Shown here piece by piece: positions 2,154 to 18,544 of a DNA stretch of 18,544 nt. Position 1 is the stretch's first letter. Every line of letters begins with the position of its first letter. A program made the position numbers and the translations under genes. The notes below the pieces were generated by a model. That model saw nothing but the letters and a program-made list of their open reading frames with translations, was not told where the DNA came from and made no database searches. Location of the stretch: the IMG/VR virus record IMGVR_UViG_3300045988_133636, positions 1 through 18,544 of that record. The stretch is one strand, 5' to 3'. The stretch is from a virus.

Positions 2154-3947
2154 ATGAAAGATATATTAAATAAAATTGGTAAATGTAATGTTTCTTGTGA
2201 TTCTATTCGTTCTATATATCAATGGGATGGTTTAACATGGCAAGAATTAATCTGCAAAGTATTTGAAGGTGTTAATAACTGTATAGAAACCGTTAATAAA
2301 TACACTGGAATAATAGAAGAAGTTTTAAAATGGATAGCTAGTGAGGGTTTAGAAGAAGAAGTTAGAAAAGGCTTAGATAGAATAATTGAAGATGGCACAT
2401 TATCCGAAATTATTAATGGAGAAATTTTCGGTAATATTCAAGATAAGTTAAGAGAATTAGAAGGTTTAATCAATGAAAATAAAGAAGAAATAAAGGAAGT
2501 AAAATCTGAAATAGAAACATTAAAAAATGAAATATTAGAGGAAGTTAAAAAAGCTTTAAAAAACATTACTGAAAGAGTAGAAAAATTAGAAAACAAGCCC
2601 CAAACTACTCAATTTTTCATATTAAAAAACGCTGTAGATTATGGAGATTCAAGTATTATAAAAGCGGATGATGGTTCTTTTTCCATGATAGATTGTATGT
2701 GGGAAACAAACTGGGGGGCATTAGTGGAGCAATTAGAAAAGATTGGTGTTAAGAAATTAAAGTATTTATTTATCACTCATTTCCATAGTGACCACATAGG
2801 AAACGCCCCAGCGGTTATTAATAAATATAAACCTGATTATATTGTTTATAAATCAGGAATTGATTTTGATAGGTTACCCGCTGTTGAAAAAGAATGGGAC
2901 ACAAAAGGTTATTTTGAAAGAATGATACAAGCTTGTAAAGATAATGGAGTTCATGAAATAATAGCTGACGACCAAGAAATAAAAATCGGAATAAATGACA
3001 GTGTTCAATTATTTGGTTCTCACTTTTATGATTATAGTAATTTAAATGCAATGAGTGTAAACTATATGCTTAAATCTAAAGGAATTAAAGCGGTATTTCC
3101 AGGGGACAGTGCAAAAAGCACTGAATTAGCAATTAAGGATAAAGTAGGTAAAGTTGATTTTCTTAAATTATCTCACCACGGAGCGGATGGAGGTAATTCA
3201 GATGATTGGTTTAGTGTTTTACAGCCTGAATTTTGTATGATTAATAGGGTTGAACTTTATAAAATAGATATAGTTAAAAGTTTTGCTTTAAAAGCTATTA
3301 AATTCGGTGGTAAAGTTTATACTAACGATAATAATGATTTTTGTTCTTTTAATATTGATGATGGTTGTATTTACCCTACTTGTAAAGAATATCCATTCCC
3401 TTTACAGTTTTTAGATTACTGGGATGGGACTTATAAAATGACAGATACAACTGGAAAAATAGCGACAAAGGGAATTTACCCATACAAAACAGATTATTAT
3501 TTTGTTAAAGATAATGGATTTATTGCTCAAGGTCAATGGGTAAATTATCACGGTGTTGATTACTACGCAGATTCATCAGGAAGATTGGTAAGAAATGTTT
3601 TCATAGAGGGTACTGATAATGGTCACCCAGTTTGGTATTGGATTAATGAAAAATGCGAAATGGTTCTTGATTGGACATTTGTAAATTATAAAAATAATCT
3701 TTACATTATTAAAAATAATGGGATGATGTGTGATGATATGATAGTGGAATATCAAGGCGACCATTACAAGGCTACTAAGGGAGGTCCATTATTATTAAAT
3801 GATTGGTTTCAAGATGGTTCTGATTGGTATTATTTCAGATTTGATGGTCGAATGATTAAGAATAAAACATTAGTTATAAATGGGAAATGGTACACATTTG
3901 GTTCAGATGGGAAGTGTTCTAATCCTGATGGTGAACCAATAAGTTAA
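2154..3947 (+). CDS. Appendage/receptor-binding protein candidate: coiled coil + metallo-beta-lactamase-fold hydrolase + cell-wall-binding repeats (597 aa)
   Basis: GGAGG RBS. Residues about 60-150 are heptad-rich. It has an HFHSDH (HxHxDH) motif and a later LKLSHHGADGGNS signature typical of ComEC-type MBL hydrolases. The C-terminal 170 aa hold about seven 20-aa aromatic repeats (DYYFVKDNGFIAQGQW, VDYYADSSGRLVRN, DWYYFRFDGRMIKNKT, KWYTFGSDGKC) like CW_binding_1/choline-binding repeats. Confidence 0.8.
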   Translation: MKDILNKIGKCNVSCDSIRSIYQWDGLTWQELICKVFEGVNNCIETVNKYTGIIEEVLKWIASEGLEEEVRKGLDRIIEDGTLSEIINGEIFGNIQDKLRELEGLINENKEEIKEVKSEIETLKNEILEEVKKALKNITERVEKLENKPQTTQFFILKNAVDYGDSSIIKADDGSFSMIDCMWETNWGALVEQLEKIGVKKLKYLFITHFHSDHIGNAPAVINKYKPDYIVYKSGIDFDRLPAVEKEWDTKGYFERMIQACKDNGVHEIIADDQEIKIGINDSVQLFGSHFYDYSNLNAMSVNYMLKSKGIKAVFPGDSAKSTELAIKDKVGKVDFLKLSHHGADGGNSDDWFSVLQPEFCMINRVELYKIDIVKSFALKAIKFGGKVYTNDNNDFCSFNIDDGCIYPTCKEYPFPLQFLDYWDGTYKMTDTTGKIATKGIYPYKTDYYFVKDNGFIAQGQWVNYHGVDYYADSSGRLVRNVFIEGTDNGHPVWYWINEKCEMVLDWTFVNYKNNLYIIKNNGMMCDDMIVEYQGDHYKATKGGPLLLNDWFQDGSDWYYFRFDGRMIKNKTLVINGKWYTFGSDGKCSNPDGEPIS

Positions 3948-3950
3948 ATT

Positions 3951-3966
3951 TGTTTCACGTGAAACA
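3951..3966. promoter_or_regulatory. Perfect 16-bp palindrome TGTTTCACGTGAAACA, copy 1
   Basis: Exact palindrome starting 4 nt after the stop of 2154-3947. It is identical to copies at 3976, 9399 and 9425. Confidence 0.9.
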
Positions 3967-3975
3967 TTAATATTA

Positions 3976-3991
3976 TGTTTCACGTGAAACA
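3976..3991. promoter_or_regulatory. Perfect 16-bp palindrome TGTTTCACGTGAAACA, copy 2
   Basis: Exact repeat, 25 bp start-to-start from copy 1 and 20 nt upstream of the ATPase start codon. Confidence 0.9.
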
Positions 3992-4010
3992 TTAAAAGAA
4001 AGGAGTAATT

Positions 4011-5039
4011 ATGTATTTTGAATTAAAACCATATTTGGAAAAATACCCTAATAAATTTTATTACGCTTTTTTAGGTGGTAGAGGAACGGGAAAAAGTTTT
4101 GATATAAAGGATAATATATTTAATGATTTTATGGAAAAAGGAGAGCAGGCAATTGTATTAAGAAGGTATGTAAATCAGCTTGACGACATAAAAGAGAATT
4201 ACATGGATGATGTTATTTTAGAAAAATATCCTGATTTTATGAAGGATATTACTTATAAGCATGACGCTGTTTATTATCAGGACAAGCCTTTTATTTTCTT
4301 TATGGGATTAAATAGAAAAGGAGTAATGAAGGCGGGGGCTTTTCCTAAAGTTACTAAAATAGTTTATGAAGAATTTACCCCTCAAGCTGGTGAAAAATAT
4401 CTATCAAAGGAATATCAAAGATTGGAAACATTGGCAATCACTGTCGATAGATTTCAAGATAGAGTAACCTGTTTTCTTTTAGGTAATACAACTACTACCT
4501 ATAACCCAGTTTTTCAGGCTATGAAATGTTATCCACCACTTGATTTTTCTGTAAAAGAAAATAATGAAATAATGATTGCTAGGTTTCCAACTAATGAAGA
4601 ATTAGCTGAAAAACAAACTAATTCAAGGCTGGGGAGAGTAACAAAAAGGTCGGGAACATATTCATATAATATTCAAAATGAAAACTTGTCTAATGAAATG
4701 TTTAATGTAATACCTAAGAAAGAATTTTTTAAAATTCCTGAGGTTCAAAAGGATGTATTTAACCCAGTAATTACTTGTAAAATTGATGAAAATAAATATG
4801 TTAGATTATGGCAAGGAAATTCAAATATTTTATTTGTTGATATTACAAATAAAGCTTCAAATATTCAATGTTTTTATGATTTTGATTTCCAAAATAAAGA
4901 TAATGTGCATATCAGCATGATTGACCACCCAGTGCTAGAGGTTTTCACTTTTTTATATAAACAAGGTAGGGTATTTTTTAGTAATATTGAAGCTAAAACT
5001 TTCGGGGTACAAATATTTACATTTAATGACCCTATTTAA
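4011..5039 (+). CDS. DNA encapsidation (packaging) ATPase, phi29 gp16-like (342 aa)
   Basis: AGGAG RBS. Walker A is FLGGRGTGKS near the N-terminus and the Walker B-like segment is KIVYEEF. Size and layout match small-podovirus packaging ATPases. Confidence 0.8.
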   Translation: MYFELKPYLEKYPNKFYYAFLGGRGTGKSFDIKDNIFNDFMEKGEQAIVLRRYVNQLDDIKENYMDDVILEKYPDFMKDITYKHDAVYYQDKPFIFFMGLNRKGVMKAGAFPKVTKIVYEEFTPQAGEKYLSKEYQRLETLAITVDRFQDRVTCFLLGNTTTTYNPVFQAMKCYPPLDFSVKENNEIMIARFPTNEELAEKQTNSRLGRVTKRSGTYSYNIQNENLSNEMFNVIPKKEFFKIPEVQKDVFNPVITCKIDENKYVRLWQGNSNILFVDITNKASNIQCFYDFDFQNKDNVHISMIDHPVLEVFTFLYKQGRVFFSNIEAKTFGVQIFTFNDPI

Positions 5040-5068
5040 AAGCATGATAATTTTATCATGCTTTTTTC
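5038..5068 (+). terminator. Rho-independent terminator after the ATPase gene
   Basis: AGCATGAT (5041-5048) pairs with ATCATGCT (5055-5062), followed by TTTTTT (5063-5068). Confidence 0.8.
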
Positions 5069-5079
5069 TTTACTTAGTA

Positions 5080-5106
5080 TTGACATTATGTTATAATTAA
5101 TATAAC
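5080..5106 (+). promoter_or_regulatory. Possible promoter for the terminal protein-polymerase operon
   Basis: TTGACA (5080-5085). The best -10 is TATAAC (5101-5106) with a short 15-nt spacer. The position between the terminator and the next RBS fits. Confidence 0.5.
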
Positions 5107-5128
5107 GAATAAATGGAGGTTTTAAGTT

Positions 5129-6028
5129 ATGAGTAATAGAAATACAAGGAAACAGTATTATAATAGAGTTTATCAAGAATATCAAGTTAATGGCTGGGAT
5201 TTTGAGAAATTAGTTGGGAGATATAAACATGATACAATTATTAATAATCCTAATGCTTATGAGGTGTTTAAAAATAGAGTTATTAAAGACAGAAAGTTTA
5301 GAAAAGAAAGGGCAAAAATAGAAGAAGAATACAAACAAATTCAAGAAAAAAGTAAGAAACAAGGTTATGAAATAAGGCAAAAACAATATGAAGATATAGA
5401 CAGAAAAAAGATGATAAATGCGGAGAAAAAAGGATTTATCAATAAAAATAATGTATTTTTAAATAAGAAACAAGTTAAACAATTAAAAAATATTTATACG
5501 GAACATAAAGATTTATACAAAGTTTTTAAGGAAAAATTAATTGAAGATTACGGATTTAATAAAGATGATTTGGCATTATTGGAGGGGGAAATTTTACAAA
5601 GTAATAAGGGCAATACATTTCAATTACCTATTAATATTAAGGGATTCGAAAACTTTGAAAACTTATTAAATAGTTTTACATTACAGGGTAACGTGGATAA
5701 CCTAATTAAGATTTATAAAAAAGATGTTAAATCTTTAGAAGAAAATAGAATGACTATTAATGATAGAATAGAAGGAAAAGACTTTATAGATTTGTTTGAA
5801 CAATTACATGAGGATAGAGTTATCACTGAGGGTGAATTAATTGATTTAAAAAATATGATTGCACATACAAGGTTTACCACAAAAGAAGCTATTAGAAATC
5901 ATTTTGGGAAATTAACTAATCTAATAGAAAGTGACCCGCAAACGGGTGTTAAAATAAGGAATTATTATGCTACCTTAAAGAATTGGATAGTATTATTTGA
6001 TAAGGCTGATTATACAGTAAGAAGATAG
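5129..6028 (+). CDS. Putative terminal protein (299 aa)
   Basis: A basic, Lys-rich protein encoded immediately upstream of, and apparently co-transcribed with, the protein-primed polymerase. Its size is near phi29 TP (266 aa). The assignment is by position only; no sequence motif was recognised. Confidence 0.55.
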   Translation: MSNRNTRKQYYNRVYQEYQVNGWDFEKLVGRYKHDTIINNPNAYEVFKNRVIKDRKFRKERAKIEEEYKQIQEKSKKQGYEIRQKQYEDIDRKKMINAEKKGFINKNNVFLNKKQVKQLKNIYTEHKDLYKVFKEKLIEDYGFNKDDLALLEGEILQSNKGNTFQLPINIKGFENFENLLNSFTLQGNVDNLIKIYKKDVKSLEENRMTINDRIEGKDFIDLFEQLHEDRVITEGELIDLKNMIAHTRFTTKEAIRNHFGKLTNLIESDPQTGVKIRNYYATLKNWIVLFDKADYTVRR

Positions 6029-6040
6029 GAGATTTTTAAA

Positions 6041-8437
6041 ATGTTAAATTATAGTTATTATCAGGAAAATGTGAATAGTCAATTTAATTATATAATATCT
6101 AAAGTTAAAGAAAAAAGACTTGAGGAAATAAGAGAAGATATTTCTGAAAATCAACAAATATTAAATAATATTAAAGCTAATATAGATAAATATATATTAT
6201 TTGATGAAAAATTACCATATCCTGAAACACTAATAAAAACTAAAAAATCTTATTCCGCTGACTTAGAAACGACTACAAAAGTAAATGAAAATGGAGAAAT
6301 ATATACATTTGCTTATGCTTGTGGTTTTATGGAAGTTAATAAGAAAAATCAACTTATTCATAGTAATAATATTTCTGATTTTGTGGACAACCTAGAAAAT
6401 TTACCAGCCTTAAATTCAGAAATGTATTTTCATAATTTAACGTTCGACTTAACATTTATCTTAATTGAATTAATTAAACGTGGTTATGAACCTATTATAC
6501 CGCATTTTTTAGATATTGAAGAAATAAAAAATTGTAAAGTAACTGGTGATGGTACAGTAGATAAAGAATTATTTATAACTAAAGAAATGGATTATAAAAA
6601 TAAAGATATAAAACCATATTCATTTGATTATATTTTCGCTAATGGCTCATTTTATGAATGTACTATTTATTTTGATGAAAGAAGAATTTTAAAGAACGGA
6701 AAACATGAAACTGTTACAAAAAAATTAGTATTAAAAGATAGTTTAAAATTAGTTCCTTCAACTTTACAACAATTAGCTGACGGTTATTGTGGTTTAAAAT
6801 TATCTAAAGATGGTATTGACCATGATAAACAAAGACAAGAAGGAAAAGAACACATATTACACCATTCAGAAAAAATTTATTATTATGAAGATATATACGC
6901 ATTAAAAGAATTTATTAGAATTATGATTAAGGAAGGCGTTAATATATCAGGTGAAAATATTAAATTTGATAGAATGACATCAGCTAGTTTTGCATTTAAT
7001 CAATACAAAGAAAGTTTAAAAAAAGAATATGATAATTTTGTAAAATTAGGTGAATACCCTTCATGTGATGAATTTGTAGAAATATTTTCTGAGTTATCAT
7101 TAAAGTATGCTGACAGAAAAAATGGACCATCTAAGGAAAAAATATTCAGGGCTGTTTTTCCAGTTTTATCAGCTCAACAAGACGGATTTATAAGAGAAAG
7201 TTATTTCGGTGGAATAACAATGAAAAATAAAAGGTTATTAGCTGAATTAGAAGAAATTAATTATAAGGAAAATATTAATAAACAAAATAGTAATTTAGGT
7301 ATGTATGGGGTAACTTATGATGAAAATTCAATGTACCCTGATAAAATGAATAGGTCTTTATTACCTTATGGTAGACCCAAAAATTTTAATGGAAACTATG
7401 AGGATTTAGAAGATTCTATTAAATCAAAATATCCTTTATATATTCAGAAAATTAGAGTTAAATATTTTAACTTAAAACCTGATGGAATACCAATGCAACA
7501 ATTAAGAAACTCAGTCGACTTTAACGGTAGAGAATTTATAGAAAGTAATTATTGTGAAAAATATGATAATTATGTTACTTATACATTAGTTTTAACTAAC
7601 GTTCATTTAAAAGATTTTTTTAGAAATTATGAGGTTGACGGAATAGAATACTTAGGTGGTTTATGTTTTAAAGGTACTCATGGTTTATTTAAATCATTTA
7701 TTGAAAAATGGTATAAAATTAAACAAGAAAATAAAGGTGTTGTTAAATTAGTATCAAAGTTAATATTAAATTCTTGTTATGGTAAATTTGCAAGTAATCC
7801 TGTTCGTTCTTTCAGATTTATTAACTTAAATGATGATATTTTAGATGTATCTAAATATGATTACGAGGGGGAGGAAATAAACTATTTTGAAAGTTCTATT
7901 TATACCGCTGTAGGTTCTTTTATAACTTCTTACGCTAGAGAAGATTTATTACAGATGTTACACAATAATTTTGATAGATGGTTATATGCGGACACTGATT
8001 CTTGCCATTTATTGGGATTTGATGATGCAAAAGGGGACAAGCTAGACATTAACAACACTGGTGAATTAGGATTATGGAAAAGAGAATGTTATTTCTCAGA
8101 TTCTATCTTTTTAGGTGCTAAAAGATACGCTGAAAATGAAATTAAATCAAAAGAAAATTTAAAATTAAATAGTAAATGGGAAATAAAGTGTTGTGGGCTT
8201 CCAAAAAATATAATGTCAAAAATAGATATAAAATCATTTGGATTTATTGACCCCTCAATCAATGAGGATGAATTATTTACAAGTGATGATAAAGAAGATT
8301 ACCATTACTATAAAGATAAAAATTGCACTGAGAAAGTAGTTGGTATATGGCAAAGTAGAAAGAAAAAAAGTGTTAAAGGTGGGATAATAATTAAATCGCA
8401 ACCTTATAAATTAAATAGTGCTTTTTATTTAAGATAA
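6041..8437 (+). CDS. Protein-primed family-B DNA polymerase (798 aa)
   Basis: Motifs read directly: Exo I ADLETTT, Exo II YFHNLTFDL, Exo III YYYED, motif A DENSMYP, motif B KLILNSCYGKF, motif C YADTDS, and KxY GAKRYA. All parallel the phi29 gp2 motifs. Confidence 0.95.
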   Translation: MLNYSYYQENVNSQFNYIISKVKEKRLEEIREDISENQQILNNIKANIDKYILFDEKLPYPETLIKTKKSYSADLETTTKVNENGEIYTFAYACGFMEVNKKNQLIHSNNISDFVDNLENLPALNSEMYFHNLTFDLTFILIELIKRGYEPIIPHFLDIEEIKNCKVTGDGTVDKELFITKEMDYKNKDIKPYSFDYIFANGSFYECTIYFDERRILKNGKHETVTKKLVLKDSLKLVPSTLQQLADGYCGLKLSKDGIDHDKQRQEGKEHILHHSEKIYYYEDIYALKEFIRIMIKEGVNISGENIKFDRMTSASFAFNQYKESLKKEYDNFVKLGEYPSCDEFVEIFSELSLKYADRKNGPSKEKIFRAVFPVLSAQQDGFIRESYFGGITMKNKRLLAELEEINYKENINKQNSNLGMYGVTYDENSMYPDKMNRSLLPYGRPKNFNGNYEDLEDSIKSKYPLYIQKIRVKYFNLKPDGIPMQQLRNSVDFNGREFIESNYCEKYDNYVTYTLVLTNVHLKDFFRNYEVDGIEYLGGLCFKGTHGLFKSFIEKWYKIKQENKGVVKLVSKLILNSCYGKFASNPVRSFRFINLNDDILDVSKYDYEGEEINYFESSIYTAVGSFITSYAREDLLQMLHNNFDRWLYADTDSCHLLGFDDAKGDKLDINNTGELGLWKRECYFSDSIFLGAKRYAENEIKSKENLKLNSKWEIKCCGLPKNIMSKIDIKSFGFIDPSINEDELFTSDDKEDYHYYKDKNCTEKVVGIWQSRKKKSVKGGIIIKSQPYKLNSAFYLR

Positions 8438-8450
8438 TTTTTAAAAAGTA

Positions 8451-8479
8451 TTGACATTACCCCCAATTAATGATAACAT
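8451..8479 (+). promoter_or_regulatory. Extended -10 promoter
   Basis: TTGACA (8451-8456), then TGATAACAT (8471-8479), read as TG-n-TAACAT with a 17-nt spacer. The string TGATAACATATA is shared with the promoter at 9104. Confidence 0.65.
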
Positions 8480-8530
8480 ATAGTTAGTTGAAAAATAGGG
8501 GATTAATTCCCCTTTAAGGAGGTTTACAAA

Positions 8531-8827
8531 ATGAAAAGAAAAAAGATTACTGACGTTGAAAAAGAACTTGAGTTATTAGAAGTTAGATTAGATGTTTATT
8601 CATCATTAAAAAATGCTTTATTTGAATTAGGATTACAAGACTATTACGTCACTGATGATATAGAAGATTTAAATGACAGAATAGAAAAATCGAAATTATC
8701 TTGTCAACAAATTTGTTTAAATTTAAGGGAACAAATACCTAACATTGAAAGTAATGTGAAGTTTAGAAAACTTATTAAAAAACATAACTTTGAATATTAT
8801 TCATCCCATTTTAAAGGAGGATTTTAA
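8531..8827 (+). CDS. Hypothetical protein (98 aa)
   Basis: AAGGAGG RBS. A small AGGGGA/TCCCCT hairpin (8497-8513) lies in its leader. No motif recognised. Confidence 0.75.
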   Translation: MKRKKITDVEKELELLEVRLDVYSSLKNALFELGLQDYYVTDDIEDLNDRIEKSKLSCQQICLNLREQIPNIESNVKFRKLIKKHNFEYYSSHFKGGF

Positions 8828-8829
8828 AA

Positions 8830-9126
8830 TTGAATAAAAATGATAGATTAAAATTAATGAAGGTTTTTGATAATATTTGTAAAAACAATCAGTATGTTCA
8901 ACACTATAAAGGTTGTAGAATAATATCATATAATGACCCCGAACATGAAAATGTAATATTTCAATTTCATCATAATTGTAATGATTTTTGTTATGCACAT
9001 ACTTTTATTTTAAATGATTTTTATAATAATATTGATTTAGATTCTTTCATTGAATATTATAATTTAAGCTTAGAAATTTTTAGAGAAAAACTTCAAAATT
9101 ATATTGACAATAATCTTATAGTATGA
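8830..9126 (+). CDS. Hypothetical protein (98 aa, Cys/His-rich)
   Basis: TTG start 9 nt after GGAGG (8816-8820), coupled to the previous stop. No motif recognised. Confidence 0.65.
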   Translation: MNKNDRLKLMKVFDNICKNNQYVQHYKGCRIISYNDPEHENVIFQFHHNCNDFCYAHTFILNDFYNNIDLDSFIEYYNLSLEIFREKLQNYIDNNLIV

Positions 9127-9132
9127 TAACAT
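9104..9132 (+). promoter_or_regulatory. Extended -10 promoter inside the 3' end of the preceding ORF
   Basis: TTGACA (9104-9109), 17-nt spacer including TG (9124-9125), TAACAT (9127-9132). The -10 block TGATAACATATA is the same as at 8471. Confidence 0.6.
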
Positions 9133-9168
9133 ATAATTAAAGAAAGAGATAAATTGGAGGTAATTAAA

Positions 9169-9366
9169 ATGACAAATTGTGAAGTTGGATTTGAACAAAT
9201 TAAATTCTCATGTGAGAAAGGTAACAAACATGGAATGGATAAAAAAGGTTGGTTAGAATTATATGGAAAATGTAAGGTTTTAGAGTTTCAATGTTTCCAA
9301 GCTAGTGACCCAATAGTGTACAAAGTTCAATCATTAATAGAAGATATTGAAAAAGAAATATTATAA
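9169..9366 (+). CDS. Hypothetical protein (65 aa)
   Basis: The ATG at 9169 has GGAGG (9156-9160) 8 nt upstream. The track start at 9154 is a TTG lying inside that RBS. Confidence 0.7.
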   Translation: MTNCEVGFEQIKFSCEKGNKHGMDKKGWLELYGKCKVLEFQCFQASDPIVYKVQSLIEDIEKEIL

Positions 9367-9395
9367 AAAAGGAGGGAAAATTTTCCCTCCTTTTT
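9365..9395. terminator. Bidirectional rho-independent terminator where the two arms converge
   Basis: AAAAAAGGAGGGAAAA pairs with TTTTCCCTCCTTTTT. A-run and T-run flanks give a U tract on both strands. Confidence 0.85.
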
Positions 9396-9398
9396 ATA

Positions 9399-9414
9399 TG
9401 TTTCACGTGAAACA
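9399..9414. promoter_or_regulatory. Perfect 16-bp palindrome TGTTTCACGTGAAACA, copy 3
   Basis: Exact copy immediately after the bidirectional terminator. Confidence 0.9.
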
Positions 9415-9424
9415 TTTATTTAAT

Positions 9425-9440
9425 TGTTTCACGTGAAACA
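9425..9440. promoter_or_regulatory. Perfect 16-bp palindrome TGTTTCACGTGAAACA, copy 4
   Basis: Exact copy, 26 bp from copy 3, ending 1 nt before the endolysin stop codon (9442-9444). An extra half-site GTGAAACA lies at 9455-9462. Confidence 0.9.
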
Positions 9441-9441
9441 T

Positions 9442-10116
9442 TTATATTTTCTCAGTGAAACAATATAATCCTAAATCATTTTTTATTTTACTTTCAGCTT
9501 TTTCAGCTTCTTCTTTAGTTCTAAATCTTTGAACAACTACACGGTAAAAATCAGGTTCATTTTCTAAAGGGATAGAAGGGTCAACCGCATGACATAAAGC
9601 CCTTGTTAATGTTTCATATGGACAAGGTGACCATATATTAATATCTTTTTGACTATCACAAAAACAAGTTTCAAAGATAATATTTGGTGCGTCTAAGTCT
9701 TTCATTTCCCACTGATTACCTACCTTAACACCTCTATTAAAGAAGCCTAATTTTGAATATTCTTCACATATTCTTTCAGCGACATTCCAAACTCTTGAAC
9801 CATTGGCAACTAAGCACTCAACCCCAAAAGCTTTACCGTTATAAGAGTTCATATGAAGTGATATAAATATATCAACACCAGCACTATTAGCTTTATTTAT
9901 TCCCTCATAAACTTCTGCCCTTTCTGTACTTGCATTTGAATTACAATCAATTACTGTATGACCATATTTCTCAAAACATTCTTTAACATATTGATAATAA
10001 ACTTTCATAGTAGTATGTTCATTTCTTAAACCTATTGCTCCCAAACAGTTTGGAGAATGACCAGCCCTTAAACCTATTCTTAATTTTCTACTTTTTAAAA
10101 TATCATCTAAATACAT
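9442..10116 (-). CDS. Endolysin, N-acetylmuramoyl-L-alanine amidase (Amidase_3 type) with short SPOR-like C-terminal segment (224 aa)
   Basis: AGGAGG RBS. The pattern RAGHSPN..G, DIFISLHMNS, GVECL, NRGVK, IIFETCFCD follows CD27L/PlyPSA-type Amidase_3 catalytic domains. The last 35 aa or so (YRVVVQRFRTKEEAEKAESKIKNDLGLYCF) look like one beta-alpha-beta SPOR half-repeat. Confidence 0.85.
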   Translation of the reverse strand: MYLDDILKSRKLRIGLRAGHSPNCLGAIGLRNEHTTMKVYYQYVKECFEKYGHTVIDCNSNASTERAEVYEGINKANSAGVDIFISLHMNSYNGKAFGVECLVANGSRVWNVAERICEEYSKLGFFNRGVKVGNQWEMKDLDAPNIIFETCFCDSQKDINIWSPCPYETLTRALCHAVDPSIPLENEPDFYRVVVQRFRTKEEAEKAESKIKNDLGLYCFTEKI

Positions 10117-10249: not shown

Positions 10250-10984
10250 TTACATAAATAACATAAATAAGTTTTCGCATTCTTCAAGATACATTTCAAA
10301 AATATTTATTAATACACTTCTCCATTTTTCTAATAATTCTGCTGAACTTGTTACACCTATGTTACCCTGAGAAATTAACTCAGTTTTTTCCAATTCTTTT
10401 CCCTTTTCATCTTCTTTTAATTTACCATTTGTTACAGAATTACTTGTATTGGTAGATGTATTTTTTGATGTGTTAGTAGAGTTTGAATTTGCTGTTATAT
10501 TTTCAATATTTTCATTTGTAATATAACCTTCACCTACTCTTGCTAAGGCTCCATCAATAGAACTTTCTTTACCATTGGATGAAGAGGAACTATTTTCCTT
10601 ATTCAGTATTTCATTTAATGTATCATCATTTGATTTTAAATTATTTTCATTTTCATTAAGTTGATTTTTATTATTTTCAGTTTGTAACTCTCTGATAAAA
10701 GTTTCTTTTAAATCCTTATTTAATAAGAAATCAATTTTTTTAGAAGCAAGTTCTGTTTCATATAATTGCTTATAATATGGGGCTATTCTATTAAGTGTAG
10801 CCATTAATCTTTGTTGGAATCTTCTTACAGTTTCAAAACCTATTTCATGAAAATAAAAATGTTCAATAAATCTCTGTTCAAAAACTCCTTTTAAATCTTC
10901 ATCTATAAAGTCATATGGAAAAGCAAAAATATTAAAATTCGGGTCTTCTGCTAAATATCTGAGTTCTAACGTGAATTTACTCAT
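10250..10984 (-). CDS. Lower collar protein, phi29 gp11-like (244 aa)
   Basis: I prefer the ATG at 10984, which has an AGGTGA RBS and overlaps the portal stop by 8 nt, over the track start at 11017. The N-terminal FHEIGFETVRRFQQRL..IAPYYKQLY block resembles lower-collar proteins of phi29-like phages, as recalled from memory. The gene lies directly after the portal gene. The centre is an S/N/T-rich low-complexity segment. Confidence 0.65.
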   Translation of the reverse strand: MSKFTLELRYLAEDPNFNIFAFPYDFIDEDLKGVFEQRFIEHFYFHEIGFETVRRFQQRLMATLNRIAPYYKQLYETELASKKIDFLLNKDLKETFIRELQTENNKNQLNENENNLKSNDDTLNEILNKENSSSSSNGKESSIDGALARVGEGYITNENIENITANSNSTNTSKNTSTNTSNSVTNGKLKEDEKGKELEKTELISQGNIGVTSSAELLEKWRSVLINIFEMYLEECENLFMLFM

Positions 10985-16701: not shown

Positions 16702-17355
16702 CTATTTGTTCACAATTAGTTCATCTATTAAATTTTGGATTAATGTTTTCATGCACTCAGGTGCGTTTTGGTCAATTAATAAATTTAGCTTTTTATCTAA
16801 ATATTGCCTTATTATTTCATCCTCAGATTGACAACACTCATGTATTACCATTAAGAGTACCTCATTTAACCATTCTAATTCACTAATTCTTTCTTCACCT
16901 ACTGAAATAGAATCTCTCATAAATTCTAATGAGTGTAAATTCATATCTCTTTCAAACTTTAATTTTTCTATTGAGTTAACTAACTCTTTCTTTTCTACTG
17001 ATGATTTATTAAGTTCTTCTTTAGTTAAATTATACTTATCAAACCAGTAATCACTAGCCTTTTTCTTCACCTCATACATTTCTGATAAAGCATCCAATCG
17101 GCTTTTAAGTTCTTCGTTTTTATGTTTTAAACTTTCAACTTGCTTTTCCATAAAACTAATTACACTGTCTTTTTCTCTAATTTCTTCTCTCATTTTACCG
17201 TTAAATTCATTTAAGAAATTAGCTTGTCTTTTCCACTTATCTTTTCTTACTTCTAATTGACAAATTTCTTCCCTTAAATCAATGTTTTCCTTTATTGTTT
17301 CATTTAACATTTCCCTTGTTTTTCCTAATCCTCTACCACCTATATTAAACTTCAT
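16702..17355 (-). CDS. Coiled-coil protein with N-terminal Walker-A-like GGRGLGKT (217 aa)
   Basis: I prefer the ATG at 17355, which has a GAGAGGAAAAGG RBS and overlaps the upstream stop, over the TTG at 17376. Most of the protein is heptad-rich. Function unknown. Confidence 0.7.
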   Translation of the reverse strand: MKFNIGGRGLGKTREMLNETIKENIDLREEICQLEVRKDKWKRQANFLNEFNGKMREEIREKDSVISFMEKQVESLKHKNEELKSRLDALSEMYEVKKKASDYWFDKYNLTKEELNKSSVEKKELVNSIEKLKFERDMNLHSLEFMRDSISVGEERISELEWLNEVLLMVIHECCQSEDEIIRQYLDKKLNLLIDQNAPECMKTLIQNLIDELIVNK

Positions 17356-18466: not shown

Positions 18467-18544
18467 AATTTCCATAGAAATAATTACGTCATTTCCACCA
18501 CCCCATTGGGGGAAAAAATAAAAAATGAGTACACCCCCTATTAC
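18467..18544. repeat. Right inverted terminal repeat (78 bp)
   Basis: Exact reverse complement of 1-78. Confidence 0.97.

Follow-up and report, generated by a model that had tools for sequence, protein, structure and literature searches.

Tandem pairs of parS-consensus palindromes in the genome of a phi29-like podovirus of Clostridium perfringens

The window, that is, the whole 18,544-nt stretch of DNA that was analysed, contains the complete genome of a phi29-like, protein-primed podovirus that infects Clostridium perfringens, belonging to the genus Susfortunavirus of the Guelinviridae. Domain searches recovered a phi29-like gene set, comprising the Gp16 ATPase, DNA_pol_B_2, the GP10 connector, the gp9 knob and Phi29_MCP, and the terminal repeat of the window measures 78 bp. 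No lysogeny genes are evident in this phage. The packaging ATPase gene, of the phi29 Gp16 type (PF05894), is located on the plus strand at 4011-5039, while the endolysin gene (Amidase_3 + SPOR; 9442-10116, minus strand) closes the late block of the minus strand. The two gene blocks, one on each strand, converge at a bidirectional intrinsic terminator (9366-9395), which is conserved in all relatives.

A search of the whole window located exact copies of the palindrome TGTTTCACGTGAAACA at 3951-3966 (copy 1a), 3976-3991 (copy 1b), 9399-9414 (copy 2a) and 9425-9440 (copy 2b). The original prediction of four copies without a fifth was thereby confirmed, and no further copy was present in the window even when up to three mismatches were allowed. 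In 200 dinucleotide shuffles, the mean number of matches at this tolerance was 0.14, and no shuffle reached four. The copies form two tandem pairs, with start-to-start distances of 25 bp (first pair) and 26 bp (second pair), and both pairs abut a stop codon, as had been described. The first pair occupies the intergenic region between the appendage and packaging ATPase genes: the appendage stop codon (3945-3947) is followed by three bases and then by copy 1a, and copy 1b lies 20 bp upstream of the ATPase start codon (4011), the ATPase gene being directly downstream of the pair. The second pair lies in the 3′ untranslated region of the endolysin gene, where a single base (9441) separates copy 2b from the stop codon (9442-9444, minus strand).

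Two smaller features had also been pointed out. The half-site GTGAAACA (9455-9462, plus strand) is real and belongs to the 3′-terminal part of the endolysin gene. Its presence is probably incidental, since it is coding sequence and the region is conserved as TGTTTTAC coding sequence in relatives without the palindrome. The promoter-like arrangement proposed at the first pair (TTGTTT and TATTAT) remained below the threshold of the promoter scan.

All four copies match exactly the full parS consensus, which is printed as TGTTTCACGTGAAACA (PMC10197239), and they also match the consensus pattern tGTTNCACGTGAAACa; the parS of B. subtilis is given as TGTTNCACGTGAAACA (Table 1 of PMC7022226). Based on this identity, the four palindromes are almost certainly parS, the loading site of ParB/Spo0J. 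The half-site fitted none of the Rex, cre/CcpA, GlnR/TnrA, LacI-type, NrdR and Fnr operators, whereas the match to parS is exact. Among database sequences, the motif occurred in every bacterial phylum and in unrelated phages, and a parB gene was present within 8 kb in 59 of the 120 bacterial loci with perfect pairs. In Clostridium tertium, the genes are arranged in the order rsmG, noc-like, soj, spo0J, the stop codon of spo0J has two perfect copies immediately behind it, and the spo0J product is 48% identical to B. subtilis Spo0J. The best 120 matches of a ParB homology search included Clostridium proteins of C. tertium, C. nigeriense and C. sartagoforme-like organisms only, and the link to the C. 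perfringens host is made through the congeneric C. tertium and the general conservation of parS. The C. perfringens genome is annotated with soj and spo0J as well. Host ParB very probably binds the four phage sites in vivo.

No ParB, ParA, helix-turn-helix or ribbon-helix-helix domain was detected in any ORF of the phage with Pfam and PHROGs, and tblastn with Spo0J (a query validated as TIGR00180) and Soj gave no match in the phage loci. The palindromes had been proposed as operators for a dimeric DNA-binding protein, which was right in kind, insofar as they correspond to the site of a host protein, but the motif had not been recognised as parS, and a centromere or clamp-loading site is not a classical operator. 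An operator at which a phage-encoded dimeric regulator represses or insulates the ATPase-TP-polymerase block would be in line with a perfect, intergenic palindrome placed beside gene starts and ends. We consider it highly improbable, as no phage ORF offers a DNA-binding domain, the motif is universal to hosts of all phyla and shared by unrelated phages, and the number of sites differs among 97%-identical phages with the same small ORFs. The suggested looping between the pairs, or insulation of the 5.4-kb block, likewise found no support; the sites vary in number and placement among these relatives.

Comparison with close relatives revealed left-hand plus right-hand sites in numbers of 2 + 2 in the window, 2 + 1 in P5 and 0 + 1 in both CP1 and DCp1, while the right-hand site is decayed in CPD7 and no site is present in susfortuna or phiQ. 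The motif is conserved in only part of the related phages, and the bracketing of the ATPase-TP-polymerase block holds for the window genome and P5 but not for CP1 and DCp1, which have the right-hand site only, nor for susfortuna and phiQ. Copies 1a and 1b constitute the same pair that is found in P5, and copy 2b is common to P5, CP1 and DCp1 and is the one decayed in CPD7. Copy 2a is an extra copy, present only in the window genome among the compared relatives, and changes in copy number among them correspond to about 26 bp gained or lost. The C. perfringens podoviruses without parS are susfortuna, phiQ, CpV1, X44, CPS1, CPP2_IH_BH and LPCPA6. The phage vB_CpeB_CP1, a member of another genus with no relatedness at the nucleotide level, carries seven sites, all of them intergenic, with three pairs at 26-bp spacing.

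We then surveyed an unbiased sample of 80 phi29-like IMG/VR loci, chosen by their connector gene. Sites with at most one mismatch were present in 21 of them (26%), amounting to 53 sites against 0.10 expected. Intergenic sequence accounts for just 11% of these loci, yet it holds 36 of the 53 sites, which often occur as 25-26-bp pairs. The parS-bearing phages form 12 clusters unrelated at the nucleotide level. Among viral contigs with perfect pairs, 53 of 119 are phi29-like; the pair spacing of phi29-like phages has modes at 26 and 34 bp, and many phage sites are found a few bases upstream of a ribosome-binding site. Phage and chromosomal parS have a preference for AA/TT flanks in common, and in the Brucesealvirus group parS is kept perfect while its flanks diverge. 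This recurrence beyond chance in related replicons points to maintenance by selection.

The same comparisons bear on recombination or module exchange, with which the palindromes had also been associated. The appendage gene, next to the left pair, is variable, as is the small-ORF region next to the right pair, and shifts of about 26 bp in copy number could be expected of exchange scars or of functionless chance repeats. Chance is, however, excluded by the shuffle test, the motif is a defined protein-binding consensus, and the Brucesealvirus sites have stayed perfect despite diverging flanks. Furthermore, relatives with different modules often have no sites, and the number and placement of sites differ among 97%-identical relatives; we give scars or chance repeats next to no credence.

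Sites lie beside the packaging ATPase gene in the window, vB_CpeB_CP1, phi29 and CS229P2. A general preference of parS clusters for the neighbourhood of this gene is unconvincing, because the association was counted in 10 genomes, with 6.2 expected, and these genomes are not independent of one another. Among isolates, parS was present in 10 of 19 phages of spore-formers and in 1 of 7 phages of non-spore-formers (Fisher one-sided p = 0.09, with non-independent genomes), a weak trend only, and Enterococcus phage Athos, whose host is non-sporulating, carries parS. In the literature, we found parS reported in no Clostridium phage and in no phi29-like phage beyond phi29 and Nf. The window phage extends the known carriage of parS by phi29-type phages.

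Copies 1a and 1b together make up a composite inverted repeat (3951-3991, plus strand), which can fold into a 17-bp hairpin in the transcript or single strand (-24.3 kcal/mol, z = -7.9). The twin weak hairpins of the original prediction apply to the lone palindrome, which folds at -3.9 kcal/mol only, but not to the pair, whose members fold jointly. The second pair gives a 17-bp stem beside the terminator and is followed on the plus strand by the U-rich tail TTTATATTTTCT, the canonical terminator being already upstream. The terminator scan flagged 3951-3991 as terminator-like on the minus strand; no U-tract follows the first pair on the plus strand. Alignment of the appendage/ATPase junction showed that the parS pair of the window and P5 takes up the very position at which relatives have an unrelated hairpin. 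In susfortuna, CPD7 and phiQ this is a GC hairpin (-13.6 kcal/mol), and DCp1 has another one (-14.1 kcal/mol). Given the strength of the pair hairpins, part of the selection could act on RNA.

Taken further, the hairpin, whether formed by the transcript or by displaced single-stranded DNA, would serve to terminate or attenuate transcription between cistrons or to stabilise mRNA 3′ ends, and its parS identity would be secondary or coincidental. The folding energy of the first pair, the stem of the second near a terminator with its U-rich tail, the hairpins of relatives at the exact place of the first pair and the many phage sites just upstream of a ribosome-binding site all agree with such a role. 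A hairpin needs no set sequence, though, and yet the arms are exact parS in at least 12 unrelated phage lineages and across a wide GC range (27-72% in one contig set); no compensatory variation was seen, and variants retain the parS core. Moreover, single copies, which cannot form the pair-type hairpin, are common (CP1, DCp1 and many IMG/VR loci), and the sites of phi29 and B103 lie within coding sequence. The pairs resemble intrinsic terminators and intercistronic stem-loops in having a stable hairpin where relatives have hairpins, but their arms are AT-rich and constrained to parS, and the first pair is devoid of a plus-strand U-tract. We regard this alternative as unlikely; the hairpin is a possible second use of the pair, not a replacement for parS.

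Since the copies are perfect parS sites, the phage most likely recruits host ParB/Spo0J to its own DNA. Going by the sequence comparisons, we think it probable on balance that the palindromes are orphan host-type parS sites, by which the phage genome rides the ParABS/SMC machinery of the host, including capture in the forespore. That segregation or spore capture of the phage genome is the benefit under selection appears to us an evenly poised proposition. After injection, host ParB (Spo0J) dimers would assemble on each site and close as CTP-dependent sliding clamps, spreading over the 18.5-kb, terminal-protein-capped DNA. Loaded ParB could recruit SMC and contact Soj/ParA, so that the cell would treat the phage genome in the manner of a chromosomal origin region and would position and partition it along with its own chromosome. 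ParB loading may be faster with two perfect sites at each locus, and a locus beside the bidirectional terminator, where transcription halts from both sides, may suffer less displacement of ParB by RNA polymerase. In a cell already sporulating, the phage genome would be carried into the forespore and persist as a 'virospore' until germination.

This forespore step would parallel phi29, in which Spo0J has been implicated. The phi29 genome has five parS sites, and Spo0J is involved in moving it into the prespore (Meijer et al. 2005, as summarised in PMC2731898); we found four copies of TGTTTCACGTGGAACA, with one mismatch, at 10445, 15903, 17243 and 18760. Both phages are virulent podoviruses of the phi29 type with protein-primed replication, their hosts are spore-forming Firmicutes, and both carry several host-type parS sites without a ParB of their own. 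Each also has a locus placed after the stop codon of its last late gene and before a bidirectional terminator: site 17243 between the gene 16 stop and terminator TD1 in phi29, and 9399/9425 in the window. The window differs in its perfect, all-intergenic sites in two tandem pairs, those of phi29 being single 1-mismatch sites mostly within genes, in the absence of Spo0A (0A) boxes and in its Clostridium host. In the phi29 type of spore entrapment, such boxes at early and late promoters suppress the lytic cycle. The window contains no TGTCGAA and one TGNCGAA against three expected, and Spo0A boxes are not enriched in parS-bearing contigs. Clostridia are not known to have RacA or the Bacillus phosphorelay.

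The absence of Spo0A boxes that would suppress lysis is also compatible with a ParB decoy, whereby hundreds of phage genomes with four sites each would titrate ParB/Spo0J off the host origin and aid lytic growth, disturbing chromosome segregation, SMC loading, Soj/DnaA control or entry into sporulation rather than serving inheritance of the phage genome. Perfect tandem consensus copies are likely the highest-affinity form, the phage has no partner genes, and parS occurs in a phage with a non-sporulating host as well. B. subtilis spo0J null mutants are blocked early in sporulation; the Sda/phosphorelay link from Soj-Spo0J to sporulation is a Bacillus feature not known in clostridia, which counts against a decoy. 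Many relatives have one site or none, and published phi29 data favour segregation into the prespore (PMC2731898). We hold a decoy to be distinctly improbable.

Compared with chromosomal ParABS systems (the B. subtilis parS and the C. tertium pair), the proposed orphan parS sites share the identical 16-mer, the close tandem pairs and the AA/TT flanks. Chromosomal sites, in contrast, cluster near oriC beside parAB, whereas those of the phage are carried as orphans by a linear replicon of 18.5 kb, and chromosomal pairs (range 21-36 bp) are mostly 33-36 bp apart as against 26 and 34 bp in phi29-like phages. Plasmid prophages with P1 parABS or N15 sopABC likewise have a centromere on the phage genome that secures its inheritance, but they are temperate and encode their own ParA and ParB with a specific centromere, while the window phage encodes neither protein and copies the host centromere. 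The lack of Spo0A boxes, the patchy occurrence of parS in C. perfringens podoviruses, its presence in Athos and the pair hairpins speak against recruitment of the host machinery.

Until now, the use of host ParB by a virulent phage had been worked out for phi29 alone. Our survey suggests that the parS strategy is common, being found in 26% of the sampled phi29-like contigs, in 12 unrelated clusters and in a 43-kb phage family besides. Its occurrence in about a quarter of phi29-like contigs and in Athos, and the tandem pairs typically 26 or 34 bp apart, may indicate more, and we tentatively raise the possibility that orphan host-type parS is a hallmark, hitherto overlooked, that protein-primed podoviruses share in general with one or more further phage families, with the pairs as possible dual-use elements. 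As double-stranded DNA, a pair may load host ParB and, via ParB and SMC, organise, position or partition phage genomes; as transcript, it may form the intercistronic hairpin otherwise required at that position. Podoviruses of C. perfringens are under development as strictly lytic agents for biocontrol and therapy. Carriage of the host centromere predicts that the genomes of these phages can segregate together with the host chromosome and find shelter in heat-resistant spores or in carrier cells, which would have consequences for phage persistence, re-emergence after treatment and safety assessment.

A scan of the window located four exact copies of the 16-bp palindrome TGTTTCACGTGAAACA, starting at 3951, 3976, 9399 and 9425, as the original prediction had described. 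The spacings of 25 and 26 bp within the two pairs were also borne out, the distances of the pairs to the two neighbouring stop codons agreed with that description, and the extra half-site at 9455 is present. No further match was found in the window with up to three mismatches allowed, and dinucleotide shuffles of the window gave a mean of 0.14 matches, never reaching four.

When viral contigs were scanned for the exact 16-mer, at least 120 of them contained a match, spanning a GC content of 27 to 72%, and 27 carried several copies. A motif common to contigs of such different composition must belong to something universal. Its sequence makes the 16-mer a consensus parS of the chromosomal kind, the site at which ParB/Spo0J binds and is loaded. 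The parS consensus has been printed as exactly TGTTTCACGTGAAACA (PMC10197239), and a separate listing gives TGTTNCACGTGAAACA for B. subtilis and the exact 16-mer for Hyphomonas (PMC7022226). Perfect close pairs of parS were common across all phyla in the bacterial genomes scanned, with parB inside the 8-kb stretch at 59 of 120 bacterial loci carrying such pairs. Within the 21-36 bp range, bacterial perfect pairs were mostly 33-36 bp apart and often adjoined parB. The motif is in use in a Clostridium chromosome: in C. tertium, which belongs to the host's genus and has the gene order rsmG, noc-like parB, soj, spo0J, two perfect parS sites 35 bp apart lie directly 3' of the spo0J stop codon (L265, 4496-4546). 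In a comparison of flanks that covered the loci L134-L213 and L215-L334 and the window, phage and chromosomal sites alike tended to have AA ahead of the 16-mer and TT behind it. Of the phage sites, 81% and 76% had T in the first and second flanking position, versus 50% and 38% of chromosomal ones; this preference suggests an extended 20-bp recognition element.

The genome carrying these sites shares 95.6-97.3% identity with the Clostridium perfringens podoviruses vB_CP_qdyz_P5, CP1 and DCp1, and ~83% with phiQ, CPD7 and susfortuna (Guelinviridae, Susfortunavirus). The perfect 78-bp inverted repeat at its two ends (1-78 and 18467-18544) marks it as complete, linear and of the protein-primed type. 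Pfam matches revealed the phi29 gene set, comprising the Gp16 packaging ATPase (4011-5039), the protein-primed type-B DNA polymerase (6041-8437), the GP10 connector, the gp9 tail knob, a phi29-type major capsid protein and an Amidase_3 endolysin. The plus-strand genes reach 9366, the minus-strand block ends at 9442, and a canonical bidirectional terminator (9366-9395) lies between them. The appendage protein (2154-3947) combines a pre-neck appendage N-terminus with a metallo-beta-lactamase domain and a choline-binding repeat; its annotation in the relatives as 'late competence protein ComEC' is probably a mislabel. Three ORFs that follow or overlap one another (1305-1544, 1486-1731 and 1731-2111) encode Gly-X-Y repeats like those of collagen, together with the C-terminal domain of a tail fibre, at a local GC content of 0.38 versus 0.29 for the genome. 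This region looks like a fibre gene in three pieces, and the relatives are likewise annotated with three ORFs there.

Both the left locus, before the ATPase, and the right locus, at the terminator and endolysin, hold two sites in the window. P5 carries two at the left locus and one at the right, CP1 and DCp1 none at the left and one at the right, and CPD7 none at the left and a decayed site with three mismatches at the right; susfortuna and phiQ have no parS at either locus. The self-complementarity of each palindrome also makes the two members of a pair complementary to each other, and the 3940-4010 transcript folds into a hairpin with a 17-bp stem at -24.3 kcal/mol (z = -7.9), compared with -3.9 kcal/mol for a single copy. 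A stem equivalent to this one arises from the second pair, next to the terminator. We compared window 3940-4010 with the loci L001 (4005-4055) and L004 (3840-3890). In the junction alignment, the exact position of the first pair is occupied in susfortuna, CPD7 and phiQ by AAGGGGCGAAAGCCCCTT, a GC-rich hairpin of -13.6 kcal/mol, and DCp1 has a different inverted repeat forming a hairpin of -14.1 kcal/mol at the appendage-ATPase junction, the slot that the parS pair fills in the window and P5. Some stem-loop lies between these two genes in every relative. Given the hairpins of the relatives at this slot, a stem-loop seems to be wanted here, and the first pair may provide it in addition to its role as parS. 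Hairpin function cannot, however, be the primary explanation of the pairs, since no fixed sequence is required for a hairpin, parS often occurs as a single site and the sites of phi29 are mostly located inside genes.

The ORFs of the window gave neither a ParB nor a ParA domain, nor any other domain recognisable as DNA-binding. Searches by tblastn with Spo0J, a query confirmed as TIGR00180, returned no significant ParB homologue in 213 loci and one (L368) in the 119 viral contigs with perfect pairs, while C. tertium Soj had no match in either set. With neither ParA nor ParB in the phage, the parS sites of the window are orphans, workable only with host proteins; lacking ParAB as well as its own centromere, the phage does not represent a plasmid-prophage partition system.

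The closest known case of orphan host parS is phi29, which carries TGTTTCACGTGGAACA at 10445, 15903, 17243 and 18760; B103 has two sites. The published account of phi29 counts five parS sites, with Spo0J taking part in genome transfer to the prespore and Spo0A boxes suppressing the lytic cycle (PMC2731898). The phi29 site at 17243 lies between the stop codon of gene 16 (the ATPase, its last late gene) and the bidirectional terminator TD1. The window has the same layout, of endolysin stop, two parS copies and bidirectional terminator, so that orphan host parS and terminator-adjacent placement are common to both. Unlike those of phi29, the sites in the window match the consensus perfectly and form strictly intergenic tandem pairs, in a phage with a clostridial host and without 0A boxes. 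In the C. symbiosum phage CS229P2, a perfect parS abuts the packaging ATPase stop at a convergent junction (L457, 5780-5795), as in phi29. The literature searched on C. perfringens podoviruses and phi29-like phage diversity does not mention parS.

In another genus of C. perfringens podoviruses, vB_CpeB_CP1 (Brucesealvirus) has seven parS sites, all intergenic, with three pairs at 26 bp spacing; none was present in CpV1, X44, CPS1, CPP2_IH_BH or LPCPA6. The seven sites and a SpoVG-like protein, possibly another link to host sporulation, occur together in vB_CpeB_CP1 (L133, 6390-13180 and 1593-1904). For an unbiased estimate, 80 viral loci were chosen by connector-protein homology and sites with at most one mismatch were counted. 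At least one parS occurred in 21 of the 80, amounting to 53 sites in 1.08 Mb versus 0.10 expected, and 36 of the 53 were intergenic, versus 11% of the sequence (p = 2e-22; 80 loci). Close pairs in this sample were spaced by 23, 25 or 26 bp. The parS-bearing phages formed 12 clusters mutually unrelated at the nucleotide level, and 53 of the 119 viral contigs with perfect pairs were phi29-like, with spacing modes of 26 and 34 bp. The motif recurs under selection, and the survey suggests that orphan host parS is far more widespread than the single textbook example of phi29. Perfect pairs 23-24 bp apart were also seen in a second viral family, not phi29-like, represented by L343 (11191-11229) and about 20 similar loci from IMG/VR sample 3300045988. 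Its contigs (42-43 kb, GC 0.54) contain neither ParA nor ParB, and the L343 pair occupies a convergent gene junction adjoining a holin-like gene.

By analogy with phi29 and established ParABS biology, we infer that the four sites would be bound by dimers of host ParB, which would then close into clamps in a CTP-dependent manner and spread over the small phage genome with its terminal-protein caps; there they could recruit SMC and interact with Soj. The phage DNA would then be positioned and partitioned in the manner of a chromosomal origin and, in a cell already entering sporulation, would be carried into the forespore. The window lacks the Spo0A arm of the phi29 strategy, having no TGTCGAA and one TGNCGAA, and parS-bearing contigs showed no enrichment of Spo0A boxes. 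In Athos, an Enterococcus phage with a non-sporulating host, there is one perfect parS and one with a single mismatch (L456, 4788 and 1252), the perfect one being intergenic at the early/late junction, and parS is absent from six phi29-like phages of non-sporulating hosts (44AHJD, Cp-1, BadAztec2, Tillums, Penne and Av-1). The contrast between phages of spore-formers (10 of 19 with parS) and of non-spore-formers (1 of 7) is only a trend (p = 0.09, with non-independent genomes). Given these observations, the benefit to the phage may extend beyond spore capture: the sites may help to partition phage DNA in carrier cells or cells that grow slowly, to organise the genome through SMC, or to titrate ParB.
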